64,000 nt of DNA from Sphyrna mokarran (Eukaryota), in assembly GCA_024679065.1 (NCBI GenBank), contig JAGIQG010000005.1, positions 99,572,001-99,636,000 on the forward strand, in the 5' to 3' direction. The position numbers and the translations under genes were made by a program. This document shows, piece after piece, positions 4,801 through 58,110 of this stretch (position 1 is the stretch's first letter; each line of letters opens with the position of its first letter). The notes beneath the pieces were generated by a model. That model was not told where the DNA came from and ran no database searches. It was given only the letters and a program-made list of their open reading frames with translations.

Positions 4801-6433
4801 ACAGAATCTGGTCACTAGCATGTTGCTATTTGTGGACGTTTGCTGTATTTGCATGGCACAGGAGTTTGCACACAGCAGTGTCTCCTGCAACAGTGACTAC
4901 ACATCAAAAAAAAACTTCAGTAAGTGCTTTGAGACATCCAGTGGTTGTGGAAGATTCTTGAGAAATGCAAGCGTTTTTCTATTTTAGAATTTACGGAATA
5001 CAAACAACCCATTTGGTCCAACAGGACTATGCCAATGTTCACATTCCGTACAAAACTCCTCAACCCCACTTCTTTCCCATCTGCAATATACCTGCAGTGT
5101 GTAGGTGAATGCTAAAGGAATGCACTTTAAGATATAATGGGATGTGTATGAAGGAGTCAATAAGGTGAGCACACAAGGATCACTTACTCATGAGTTGATT
5201 TTAGTGGGGATGGATTATGCTTGGCCAGCTCACTCTCAGTCCCGTACAGCTGTTCTTGGGGCATTGACAAACCAGGGCAATTTGAGACGTGTTTCAGTGC
5301 CATGGATGATCTGCGGCTGTGTTCACGAACTTTACAGTTGACAACACAGCAGTTCTACGATACTTTCAGCACCATAAGGGATACCATTTCTTCTGCTATA
5401 ACTGTCAAAGCAACTTCATTTGTGTGACTTGAAAAAGTGTGGCTGAAATTCTTGTGTACACCAGCCTGCATGCAGTGCTCACCTGAATATAGCTGTGTGG
5501 TGGCTGGTGTGCACAGGTAGCTATGTGGAACCACAGGTGAGAGCGGTGAGGCCAGCTGAAGTTTATCGATTCACCTGTGGAAGTATGGGCCCAGTATCTG
5601 TCAAGCAGCTGACTCATTCATCCCAATTTCATCTAACCCTGTCAATATATCCTTCTATTCCTTTTTCCTTTCCTATATGCAACAGTTTCCCCAAAATATA
5701 TCAATGCTATTCATCTCCACTGCTCCATGTGGCAACAAATTCTGCATTTCCTCAATTCTATGTTGGATGGAGCACAGTATGCTACTGCCATGATTTTCTC
5801 TGTCCAATGTGAACAATGCCTGCAGGTACCTACTGGTATCTCAGGAGATAGAAAATGGTAAATTCCATGTTGTTGACATTAAAAAAAATTATGTACACAA
5901 GTGGAATGAATCAACATTTGTAAATCACAGACATTGTGTTCTCAAATATCAGTCTGTTCTTTGTGCAGTTTAATCCTGATTTTAATAATTTACTTTTACC
6001 AGTAACTTCTACTATAGGAGAAATATGAGGCTCCTGAGATCAAGGGTAACTGTTTCTGGTTCAAATCAGGCCACTCAATATGTTAGCTTAGACGTAATGC
6101 ATGAGGTATTTCTATGTTTCATGGCTGAGAGATCAGAAACAATTTAAGTATAATTGAACAATTTGCCCTGTATGTAATACTAGGGTGGGTGGTGGTTTTA
6201 TCCTGCTCTTTGTATTTTTTTACCCACCAAATAACAGGCTATTGTAATTGACTGGTGTATTTCAATTGGGATGACATTGTACCTAATCATTTAAACCAAC
6301 TCAATATTGGGCTTTATTTGCTAGTTTCAGACGAACATTGTACCCTGTACAATGTAGAGTACCACTGCATAGTTACCAGTGTATTGTGTTCATAGAGGGT
6401 CTAAGCTCTAGAAAGCCGGTAACAGAATTGTGT

Positions 6434-6743
6434 GTCTTTTGTTTTTATTCCAGTTCAATCCAGTCAAGTCCAATTCAGAGTCTCATCAAGTGAGACATTC
6501 CCGATCCAAGCTGACAAGACGGGACTCTCACCTCCTGTCTTGGGCTTGATCTACATGATCCAAACTGATTGGAGTAGGTAAAGCTCCTCCTCCAAGACTT
6601 GATCTCATTTGCATCTGAGCCAAAAAGGCTGAGGTGTCGCTTTTAAAAATTGCTTCAAGTGAAGCTAAAATGTAACCTAATGACTTCAGCCAAGTTCAGC
6701 ATGTCGATACTACATTTGATTTTAGCCAAAAGGCCAAGAAGCA
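6434..6743 (-). mobile_element. U2 snRNA-headed short retroposon (SINEU-like), copy A
   Basis: The minus strand begins GCTTCTTGGCCTTTTGGCTAAAATCAAATGTAGTATC (U2 nt ~4-40). A ~270-nt body shared with 57800-58110 follows, ending A-rich (GGAATAAAAACAAAAGAC). It is flanked by an 8-bp direct repeat, AATTGTGT (6426-6433 and 6744-6751). Confidence 0.85.
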
Positions 6744-6849
6744 AATTGTGTTAATTCTGACTAGGGCCGTGAGTTATTATTGAAGGTTGATTTTTGTTTT
6801 GAAGAATAATGTGACAAAACAGGTGTTATTGGACCACAGCATTAGGATA

Positions 6850-35565: not shown

Positions 35566-36763
35566 ACCATAATATGGTAGAATTGTTTGTCAAAGTAGAT
35601 AGGGATGTAGTTCATTCTGAGACCAAGGTCCAGAAGCTCAATAAAAGTAAGTATTGGTCGTGTGAGGCATGAATTTACAATGATGGACTCGGAAACGTTA
35701 CTGAAAGCAAAGGCAGTGGCAGACGTTTAAAGGACGAATAGGTGAACTCCAGAAGTTGTTTATTCCAGTTTGGTGGAAGAGTGGTAAGGTACTTGTGGCC
35801 AAACCATGGTTAACAAGGGAAATTAAAGATAGTATCTGATTCAAGGAAGAAGCATACAAATAGGCAAGAAAAAGCAGTAGGCCTGAGGATTGGGAGCAGT
35901 TCAAATTTCAGCAAAAGAAGACCAAGGGATTGATTAAAAAGTTAAAATTAGAGTATGGAAGTAAGCTAACAAGGAACATAAAACCTAACTGTAAACATTT
36001 CTATAGGTATAAAGAGAAGAATATCAACAATAATGAATATAAGCCCCTTACTGTCATAAACAGGAGAATACAAAATGGGGAATAAAGAAATGGCTGAGGA
36101 ATTAAATTTGTATTTTGCTTCAGTCTTCCCAAGGGAAGATCGGAATCATGTACCAGGAGTGCTGAGGAAAACAAGTTTTAGCGAGGAGCTGAAGGAAATC
36201 AGCATTAGTAGAAAAATGGTTTTGCGGAAATTGATGCAATTAAAGGTGGATAAATCTCCAAGGTCTGATAATCTTCATCCCAGAGTACTTAAGGAAGTGG
36301 GTCCTAGAAATAGTAGATCCATTGGTGATTAATTTGCAAAGTTCTCAGAATCTGGATTGTTTCCTACAAATTAGATGTAACTAATGTAAGCCTGCTATTC
36401 AAAAAGTGAGGTACAGAGAAACCAGGGAACCATAGACCAGTGAATCTAACGTCGGTACTGGCAAAGTTGCTGGAGTCTATTATCAAAGATTTCATAACTC
36501 CACCTTTGAAAAGCAGTGGTATAATCAGACAAAGTCAGCTTGGATTTACAAAAGGGAAATCATTCTTGACGAATCTATTGGAATTTTTTGAGTATGTAAC
36601 AAATAGACTTGACCAAGTAGAACCAGTGGATAAAGTTCATTTAGACTTTCAGAAGACTTTCGACAAGGTCTCATGGAAGAGAATACTATGTAAAGTTAAA
36701 GCACATGAGATTGCAGGTAATGTCTTGTATTAGTTAGTAGAGGGGAAGCAATGAGTTAGCACA

Positions 36764-36946
36764 AATTTCCGCAAAACCATTTTTCTACTAATGCTGATTT
36801 CCTTCAGCTCCTCGCTAAAACTTGTTTTCCTCAGCACTCCTGGTACATGATTCCGATCTTCCCTTGGGAAGACTGAAGCAAAATACAAATTTAATTCCTC
36901 AGCCATTTCTTTATTCCCCATTTTGTATTCTCCTGTTTATGACAGT
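36764..36946 (-). repeat. Perfect 183-bp inverted copy of 36050-36232
   Basis: Base-by-base reverse complement; the ORF track shows the same MGNKEMAEELNL..MVLRK peptide on both strands. Confidence 0.95.
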
Positions 36947-48675: not shown

Positions 48676-49729
48676 TTAGATTTAAGTCCAACCGATTTTT
48701 TTTTGATAGTAAACTCACAAGCTTTTGAGGTTTTCCTCTTTGTCAGGTGAAAGAGATTTTCTGGTTTCAAACAGCACATATAACAGCACAGAATGTTTAC
48801 AGATTATAATTAGAATGCGAATCTTTACACCTAACCTGCTATTCAAGTCTTAAAGTGGTCGACAATGTGGACGGAGCACTGAGCACAGGTTAAAGAGATA
48901 TGTATTGTCTCCAGACAGTATAGTAAGTGAGGTTTTTTGCTAACCCAGGCAAGTCATGGGGGGTACAGATAGTGTGACATGAAGCCAAGATCCCTGTTGA
49001 GACCTTGTGTGTGCAGAACTTGGCTATCAGTCTCTGCTCAGCGACTCTGCACTGTCAAGTGTCATGAAGACCACCTTGGAGAATGCTTACCCGAAGGTCG
49101 GAGGCCGAATGCCCGTGACCACTGAAGTGTTCGCCAACAGGAAGGGAGCAGTCTTGCCTGGTGATTGTCGAGTGATTTTCATTCATCTACTGTTGTAGTG
49201 TCTGCATGTCTCCCCAATATACTGTGCTTCGGGACATTCTTTCTTGCAGCGTATTAGGTAAACAACATTGGCCGAGTTGCAAGAGTATCTACCGTGTACC
49301 TGGTGAATGGTATTCTCACGTGTGATGATGTCATCCATGTCGATAATCCGGCATGTCTTGCAGACGTTCTGTGGCAGGGTTATGTGGTATTGTGGTCACT
49401 GTTCTCCTGAAGGCTGAATAGTTTGCTGCGAACAATGGTCTGTTTGAGGTTGCGCAGTTGTCTGAAAGTGCTCCGTCCACTCACATTGTTGACCACTTTA
49501 AGACTTGAATAGCAGGTTAGGTGTAAAGATTCGCATTCTAATCAGTAATCTGTAAACATTCCGTGCTGTTACAAGTGCTGTTTGAAACCAGAATACCTTA
49601 TTCACCTGACGAAGAGGGAAACCTCGAAAGCTTGTGAGTTTACTATCAAATAAACCGGTTGGACTTAAACCTGGTGTTGTCGGACTTCTTACTGTGTTTA
49701 CCCCAGTCCAACACCGGCATCTCTACATC
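48676..49729 (-). mobile_element. Penelope-like element: 5'-truncated GIY-YIG endonuclease remnant with inverted pseudo-LTRs, inserted in a CR1
   Basis: Minus strand ~49467-48965 reads ..SCNSANVVYLIRCKKECPEAQYIGE..PVGEHFSGHGHSASDLRVSILQGG..GLNRDLGFMSHYL (frameshifted). ~48680-48880 is the reverse complement of ~49468-49670. 11-bp TSD TTAAAATCCAT at 48665-48675 and 49730-49740. Confidence 0.9.
49600..49639 (+). ncRNA. Minimal type I hammerhead ribozyme motif in the Penelope pseudo-LTR
   Basis: ATTCAC-CTGACGA-A-GAGG(GAAA)CCTC-GAAA-GCTT-GTGAGT. It has the core boxes CUGANGA and GAAA, stem II with a GAAA loop, a palindromic stem III (AAGCTT) and stem I ATTCAC/GTGAGT. Predicted cut after 49633. 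Confidence 0.8.
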
Positions 49730-57799: not shown

Positions 57800-58110
57800 A
57801 TCGTTTCTTGGCCTTTTGGCTAAGATCAGGTGTAGTATCAGTGTGCTGCACTTGTTTGAAATCATGAAGTTGGACTGAGGCTTCATTTGAAGCAATTTTT
57901 TTAAAACAGCTTTTTGGATAAGATGCAAATGAGATCAAGCCTCGGAGAAGGTGCAATGCCTGCTCCAATCAGCTTGGATCATGTAGATCAAATCCAAGAC
58001 AGGAAGTGAGAGCTCTGTCTTGTCATCTTAGATTGGGAATGTCTCAACTTGTTGAGACTCTGAATTGGACTTGATTTGATTAAATTGGATTAATTTTTTT
58101 TAAAAAAGAC
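57800..58110 (+). mobile_element. U2 snRNA-headed short retroposon (SINEU-like), copy B
   Basis: ATCGTTTCTTGGCCTTTTGGCTAAGATCAGGTGTAGTATC (57800-57839) is U2 nt 1-40 with 3 substitutions. The body is colinear with copy A and ends AAAAAAGAC. No clear TSD. Confidence 0.85.

Follow-up and report, generated by a model that had tools for sequence, protein, structure and literature searches.

A U2-headed retroposon family in the shark Sphyrna mokarran and its probable link to U2 genes and a Tx1-type LINE

Introduction

Three families of short retroposons headed by U1 or U2 snRNA sequence, SINEU-1 to SINEU-3, are known from crocodilians (Kojima 2015, PMC4494074). U2 genes are also a target of LINEs: Keno, a member of the Tx1 clade, is U2-specific, with a 3' flank that begins at U2 nt 38/39 (PMC4494074, PMC4640811, PMC6136364). 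A comparable use of a host gene is found in R2 elements, which reside in 28S rDNA and are co-transcribed with their target, as summarised in PMC4494074. The literature covered here, with Repbase, Dfam, SINEBase, most subscription papers and shark-genome supplements outside its scope, yielded no snRNA-headed SINE beyond crocodilians, and no further one appears in the available text of PMC5786205, PMC5381603 and PMC5499810.

Here we analyse a 64,000-nt stretch of the genome of Sphyrna mokarran (GCA_024679065.1, contig JAGIQG010000005.1, positions 99,572,001 to 99,636,000), referred to below as the window, in which a sequence-only reading had noticed two copies of a possible U2-headed SINE. The element belongs to the SINEU structural class by its head, its length, its A tail, its status as a unit, the addition of heads and a target linked to Tx1. 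As far as the available text of PMC4494074 describes SINEU, both have a U2-derived head, are shorter than 500 nt, are non-coding, end in an A tail and contain internal oligo-T; both have gained snRNA heads repeatedly, include copies in tandem and run to thousands of copies; and both have a target in common with a Tx1 family that itself carries snRNA heads.

The element and its family

The two colinear copies in the window (Table 1), which lie at the places first given for them, are identical at 240 of 286 aligned bases (BLAST E 8e-72), and they begin, as had been proposed, with the 5' end of U2: the consensus agrees with nt 1-40 of the genome's own U2 gene at 39 of 40 positions, and the copies reach Rfam U2 scores of 54.7 and 35.1 bits. 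The 8-bp target-site duplication first assigned to the copy at 57800 really belongs to the minus-strand copy at 6434-6743; the 57800 copy is without a clear duplication, and the A-rich end ascribed to it is a decayed tail.

Table 1. Features of the two element copies in the window
Feature	Position	Strand	Remarks
Element copy, full-length	57800..58109	+	intermediate between subfamilies; 89-90% identity to both consensus sequences
U2 head, U2 nt 1-40	57800..57839	+	stem-loop I and branch-point recognition sequence
Antisense U2 arm	57843..57872	+	copy at 57800
Predicted pairing covering the branch-point recognition sequence	57843-57854 with 57827-57838	+	copy at 57800
Internal second U2 head	57907..57926	+	partly deleted here; consensus: U2 nt 4-27
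Hairpin module 1	57933..57980	+	
Hairpin module 2	57986..58034	+	duplicate of module 1; 0/300 shuffles reach the score
Terminal hairpin	58041..58058	+	
A/T-rich tail, decayed	58090..58109	+	target duplication unclear; consensus: AATAAA and A run
Second element copy, full-length	6434..6743	-	younger subfamily A; 93% identity to consensus
U2 head of second copy	6706..6743	-	U2 nt ~3-40
Target-site duplication, 8 bp, 5' member	6744..6751	-	second copy; ACACAATT
Target-site duplication, 8 bp, 3' member	6426..6433	-	second copy; ACACAATT

The sequence downstream of the head had been taken to be unrelated to U2. This holds for most of it, but not for consensus nt 42-75 and nt 109-132. The former corresponds to U2 8-41 in reverse complement but has diverged, with 17 of 34 positions identical. 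Pairing is possible at 26 of the 34 (P 3e-4 when compared with random genomic DNA), and among the 17 differences there are 9 A-to-G or C-to-T changes, which keep wobble pairs. The latter is a second head, identical to U2 nt 4-27 at 23 of 24 positions. The remainder of the consensus has no significant similarity to U2. An internally deleted U2, hinted at by the Rfam alignment, is not supported as the origin of the body (no significant match to U2 nt 41-191, P 0.03-0.99 in 24 comparisons with shuffles), nor is another RNA family, the one copy scanned having no Rfam match at E<=10. Neither U1, U3, U4 nor U5 lies beside the element at the 40 copies examined.

Two inverted repeats were also seen in the window. 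One, LINE-like, has 183-bp arms that are 100% identical and lie ~530 bp apart (36050-36232 and 36764-36946); the arms of the other (48678-48880 and 49467-49672) are 89% identical.

The element is a real, dispersed family of non-coding retroposons of ~310 nt with an A tail. The high copy number suspected from the two window copies is borne out: a 32-nt pattern from the 3' part occurs at 1,851 places with at most two mismatches, its reversed control at none, and a 30-nt pattern spanning the head-body junction is found 1,118 times in the genome. With the 57800 copy as query, 2,770 candidates were obtained, and all 40 that were scored are near full length. Arbitrary regions amounting to 370 kb contain three copies, which suggests more than the pattern counts do, though the sample is too thin for a copy number. 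We put the total at no fewer than ~1,900 copies and possibly many thousands.

A sample of 70 copies was drawn with the 3' pattern as sole criterion (the first 70 among 100 sites listed, one being passed over). Their 5' ends pile up at the start of U2: 56 begin within the head, 36 of them between nt 1 and 12 and a further 20 between nt 13 and 40; another 5 begin at nt 41-108 and 9 further on. The head is therefore general and accompanies the body in most cases. There is no common sequence upstream of U2 nt 1 among these copies, and their flanks are unrelated apart from common repeats, which speaks against segmental duplication. Target-site duplications, whose generality had been proposed as a check, are clear (score >=8) in only 8 of the 70; mismatched pairs give 0.5%.

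Plain U2 retrocopies are present in the genome and some element copies are arranged in tandem, so that one-off U2 pseudogene chimeras or segmental duplicates could be imagined instead of a family. The number of 3'-pattern sites, a single junction common to 1,118 copies, two subfamilies with fixed junctions and the unrelated flanks refute this explanation, which we credit with practically no probability.

The 106 near-full copies compared with the consensus have a median identity of 93.3% and a maximum of 96.7%. Subfamily B, the older one, has its junction at U2 nt 37 (64 exact sites listed, 20 read) and is 28 substitutions apart from subfamily A, each of the two having its own fixed junction. 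Matches to the body occur in four public runs bearing four organism labels (4,513, 2,210, 1,197 and 86 contigs), with A-rich ends; the run with 86 contigs is only guessed to be RNA, and contigs cannot prove a transcript. As four differently labelled runs contain the body, the family is common to several species.

Three copies on one contig (L007, L013 and L023; G000:C760, 1.6-3.1 Mb) are 96.7-98.3% identical and share the same contig end, with unrelated flanks. They point to a late local burst from a single source.

The distribution of 5' ends also bears on transcription by Pol III. A conventional Pol III SINE, with A- and B-box-like motifs supplied by the U2-derived sequence, would account for two exact matches to the B-box pattern, at nt 141 and 194, and for a near A box at nt 123. 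The four T runs of at least four residues in the consensus (nt 15, 76, 97 and 120), already held against Pol III on first reading, lie upstream of the sole A/B-like pair and should terminate transcription. Moreover, the B-like motif arises incidentally from a U2 word, and the 5' ends cluster at the first head, which precedes the near A box by ~120 nt. We consider a Pol III SINE very unlikely.

Predicted fold of the RNA

In the predicted structures the antisense arm covers the branch-point recognition sequence; this sequence is paired in the models of all three copies folded and open in that of the true U2 5' end. The consensus gives a far more stable fold than dinucleotide shuffles do (z -4.8), whereas results for individual decayed copies are uneven (z -4.2, -1.2 and -1.8). 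The head-arm helix is paired in 90.9% of cells across 26 copies, compared with 30-39% in slid controls. In the head hairpin of these 26 copies compensatory changes are absent and column shuffles were not beaten, and RNAalifold applied to 26 copies gave no covariation support. Subfamily B folds at -111.6 kcal/mol, a value reached by none of 300 random mutants of A (average -84.5), and the substitutions between A and B avoid stems at P 0.05. An Sm site is absent from the consensus.

One copy (L191; G000:C771, ~54.35 Mb, minus strand) is hyperedited, with G at 45 of 76 sense-strand A positions, compared with at most 6 in 106 others, and a U2 extension upstream of it is unedited. The pattern is consistent with ADAR-type editing of a double-stranded RNA intermediate. 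An A-to-G excess was also noticed in three LINE 3' ends (L255, L258 and L260).

A Tx1-type LINE with U2 heads

A LINE family with 2,502 first-look candidates is found at the same U2 site. Its layout is Tx1-like, and we take it to belong to the Tx1 clade. It encodes an ORF1 RNA-binding domain (PF23058), RVT_1 and zf-RVT, together with an endonuclease piece that has no Pfam match; relatives of the LINE carry PF03372, an exonuclease III-type domain. The best named match of its protein is from a devil ray (75%). Truncated at the 5' end, pieces of the LINE occupy the nt 38/39 site in variant U2 genes and are accompanied by duplications.

The LINE has U2 heads of its own. A full-length copy begins with U2 1-57, the ~16-bp duplication lying outside the head, and a second copy begins with U2 2-51. 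Among the 20 furthest-reaching of 38 matches to the 5' region, 13 have a U2 head, nine of them with a single junction (U2 1-35), and one U2-headed 5' end lies directly behind variant-U2 upstream sequence. The head is missing or a remnant in four, and in the other three U2 ~30-52 follows other sequence, which is U3- or U1-like in the two that were scored with Rfam. This suggests that other genes of the snRNA type are also hit by the LINE or used for switching. Stacked heads were observed at L380, L382 and L383, in the form of a U3-like 5' end with U2 34-52 and of a U1-like 5' end with its remnant and U2.

Targeting by the LINE is not strict: of 28 non-query 3' ends, one adjoins U2-like sequence. 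The LINE also inserts into element heads, its 3' end being found at most 60 nt upstream of 2 of the 70 sampled copies, and its 3'-end motif is absent from the 370 kb of random DNA.

The second head of the element and the next ~17 nt align with the main 5' end of the LINE, for which a head-masking hairpin similar to that of the element is also predicted. Beyond the U2-derived part the two have no significant sequence in common. Similarity past the second head and ~17 nt, which would point to a derivation of the body from the Tx1 family, is non-significant (P 0.02-0.67, 16 comparisons). Since no significant sequence is shared beyond U2, the partnership of element and LINE rests on their common target and the A tail; the LINE is the likely motor of the element because it uses the same U2 site and has its own U2 heads.

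Another LINE, Utopia or a CR1/L2 element, might instead move the element, the overlap with Tx1 being coincidental. The tail of the element is indeed without homology to the Tx1 family, and Utopia has the same U2 target site, with reptile families of relaxed specificity among its members (PMC4640811). Its endonuclease is restriction-like, in contrast to the exonuclease III type of the LINE relatives here, and cartilaginous fishes are absent for Utopia from Table 1 in the available text of PMC4640811. In this genome only the Tx1-type LINE was seen at the U2 site, and an A tail with duplications of variable length suits such a LINE. Movement by another LINE is, in our judgement, most improbable.

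A separate repeat was noticed at L263-L268 (G000:C1548, 102.13-102.16 Mb), where a 5.9-kb unit is present three times at 94-96% identity beside an 82-bp tandem array. The unit contains a truncated LINE and exons that, by eye, resemble immunoglobulin domains.

Element copies in U2 genes

The U2 genes of the genome are four near-identical copies in an ~8-kb tandem array on contig C949 and one on C224. An A run joined to U2 nt 38-63 occurs at nine sites, five with the element directly upstream, one with a Tx1-type 3' end and three with other sequence. All 23 sites of U2 nt 39-66 were classified as five intact genes, 13 uninterrupted pseudogene pieces, four cases following an element tail and one other; the four would be expected by chance at 0.0004, assuming 20,000 random copies. 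There are eight distinct loci at which U2 resumes at nt 38-42 after the element, including L051, L125 and the C949 locus. In the unbiased sample a single copy of 70 is followed by U2, so targeting is weak overall, and no target consensus outside U2 is evident at the element and LINE insertion sites examined.

The C949 locus is a fifth U2 unit, ~39 kb from the array, which reads from upstream homology through U2 ~3-37, the body, an A run and U2 40-191 to downstream homology. The upstream homology is broken by a later insertion; the downstream homology spans hundreds of bases. Three more loci with gene-resident copies were recovered when the sequences upstream of the main U2 gene and of a variant U2 gene served as queries. 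On C557 the U2 upstream region abuts element nt 1-54, followed by a LINE piece; on C993 the variant U2 upstream region is followed by U2 2-40 and the element; C927 is the fourth. The C993 copy (L326:3950-3980) has its internal U2 stem-loop inverted in place.

None of these loci was found to hold a live source copy. The C949 copy is decayed (87-88% to the consensus), and the three gene-resident copies that could be tested were rejected as parents, their nearest neighbour among 126 copies reaching at most 89.8% identity. As the gene-resident copies are decayed and lack close daughters, no actual source locus has been found.

Two dispersed copies retain the 3' half of U2 and stop ~35 nt past the mature end, like plain pre-U2 retrocopies; in one of them a 7-bp duplication encloses the whole unit. 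Read-through from a gene-resident source fits these copies, as does a later insertion into a U2 retrocopy if the 5' join was seamless.

Additional U2 sequence was also found in front of the element. Of 55 sites with U2 nt 19-45, 30 were read: 13 belong to the element, 4 to a LINE 3' piece, 1 to a LINE 5' end, 7 to full U2 and 5 to other sequence. Extra or longer U2 heads on the element are thus present at 13 of the 30 loci, and all 13 leave U2 at nt 47-61. In several of these chimeras the target duplication lies outside the whole chimera. One extension is common, at 98.2% identity, to two unlinked insertions with unrelated flanks, so extended forms must themselves have been copied.

The extended heads bear on the SINEU model of Kojima, in which heads are acquired when reverse transcription switches template to free U2 RNA, source copies owe their transcription to unrelated Pol II promoters in the flanks and insertions in U2 genes are dead ends. 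The extended copies mostly have unique junctions, and in none of the 12 with a readable tail does the U2 3' half follow the tail (10 nt in one). These features speak for template switching, as do the U1- and U3-like heads on some LINE copies, the unedited upstream extension of L191 and the fact that no tested gene-resident copy is a demonstrable parent; template switching has been argued for SINEU-2 in PMC4494074. On the other hand, SINEU-2 has flank-derived extensions, unlike the 70 copies sampled here, which have no common upstream sequence. Within U2 genes, element copies and LINEs also begin precisely where the upstream region ends, and the extension ends agree with the range (nt 42-59) over which LINEs have inserted into U2 genes at the DNA level. 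We regard the model as rather unlikely for the present family; template switching and a source in U2 genes can nevertheless coexist.

The variant U2 gene mentioned above (L198 / G000:C927:557-560 kb, L311-L323) has a different 3' half and a repeat unit of ~390 bp. The units seen after its upstream region are broken by the LINE or the element, none being intact. Two dispersed units start within U2 (nt 94 and 102) yet contain the next upstream region, as if the variant-U2 promoter itself had been retrotransposed.

Discussion

We consider it probable that the element is a retroposon that inserts at the U2 site, with source copies in U2 genes that are transcribed from the U2 promoter and copied by the proteins of the U2-headed Tx1-type LINE. 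In such a cycle the LINE endonuclease would nick U2 DNA at nt 38/39, the A tail serving for priming. A copy that landed in a U2 gene would be transcribed from U2 nt 1, and its RNA would begin with a fresh U2 head; heads would be re-acquired and stacked because transcription starts at that nucleotide. Most daughter copies would land elsewhere, promoter-less and dead. The arm over the branch-point recognition sequence could keep the RNA from behaving as a faulty U2.

A U2-gene locus transcribed from U2 nt 1 would yield exactly the structure of the dispersed copies, and borrowing both the U2 promoter and U2-targeting LINE enzymes would explain how promoter-less elements are copied. The external snRNA-type promoter postulated by the sequence-only reading gains anatomical support from the copies inside U2 genes; transcription from the U2 promoter is what we infer from this arrangement.

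The element is set apart from SINEU by its host and its target, and its origin is likely to be independent of that of the crocodilian families. The preferred target of SINEU is a Mariner transposon (Mariner-N4_AMi), whereas that of the element is the U2 gene at the Keno site; the host is a cartilaginous fish rather than a crocodilian, so the distribution of the named families is not matched (PMC4494074). Element copies sit behind U2 upstream sequence, a candidate promoter of a kind that PMC4494074 could not identify for SINEU. The antisense arm after the head is likewise undescribed for SINEU there, and SINEU-3 is an internally deleted U2 with an 83-nt middle U2 fragment (PMC4494074), whereas the body of the element has no significant match to U2 nt 41-191.

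The insertion site of the LINE and the element is the same as that of Keno (37/38, with the 3' flank from nt 39), but Keno is described as U2-specific, whereas LINE and element are mostly found outside U2, exporting a U2 head (PMC4494074, PMC4640811, PMC6136364). By analogy, the element's behaviour would be that of a non-autonomous Keno passenger whose targeting is relaxed.

R2 and the element would be alike in being promoter-less and dependent on transcription of the target gene, a dependence that for the element follows from the proposed cycle. A derived group exists for R2 as well, the SIDE elements. Unlike R2, the element targets a Pol II snRNA gene, keeps host 5' sequence as its head and is mostly dispersed.

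Of immediate consequence is the annotation of U2 genes. Nine matches above 46 bits were obtained with the Rfam U2 model in 40 loci (L120-L159), one of them being a U2 3' half, and the window copy also passes the Rfam U2 gathering score (57800-57982). Because element copies exceed this cut-off, U2 annotations of sharks and rays may be inflated.

How SINEU is transcribed is treated as an open question in the available text of PMC4494074; an element and a LINE that both lie at the U2 transcription start make the question testable. If the snRNA-headed design arose a second time, in a vertebrate lineage far from the first, it would count as recurrent, and the masking predicted for the branch-point recognition sequence ties the structure of a retroposon RNA to splicing tolerance. 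We hold belief and doubt in even balance over the wider proposal that cartilaginous fishes have independently evolved a promoter-parasitic SINE-LINE pair, homing to U2 genes, with the first 35-60 nt of U2 as a renewable head and, in both partners, an antisense arm that hides the catalytic front of U2. If it is true, co-transcription with the target from an snRNA promoter would add a fourth mode of powering SINEs, one in which the hijacked transcript is masked so that splicing is not poisoned.
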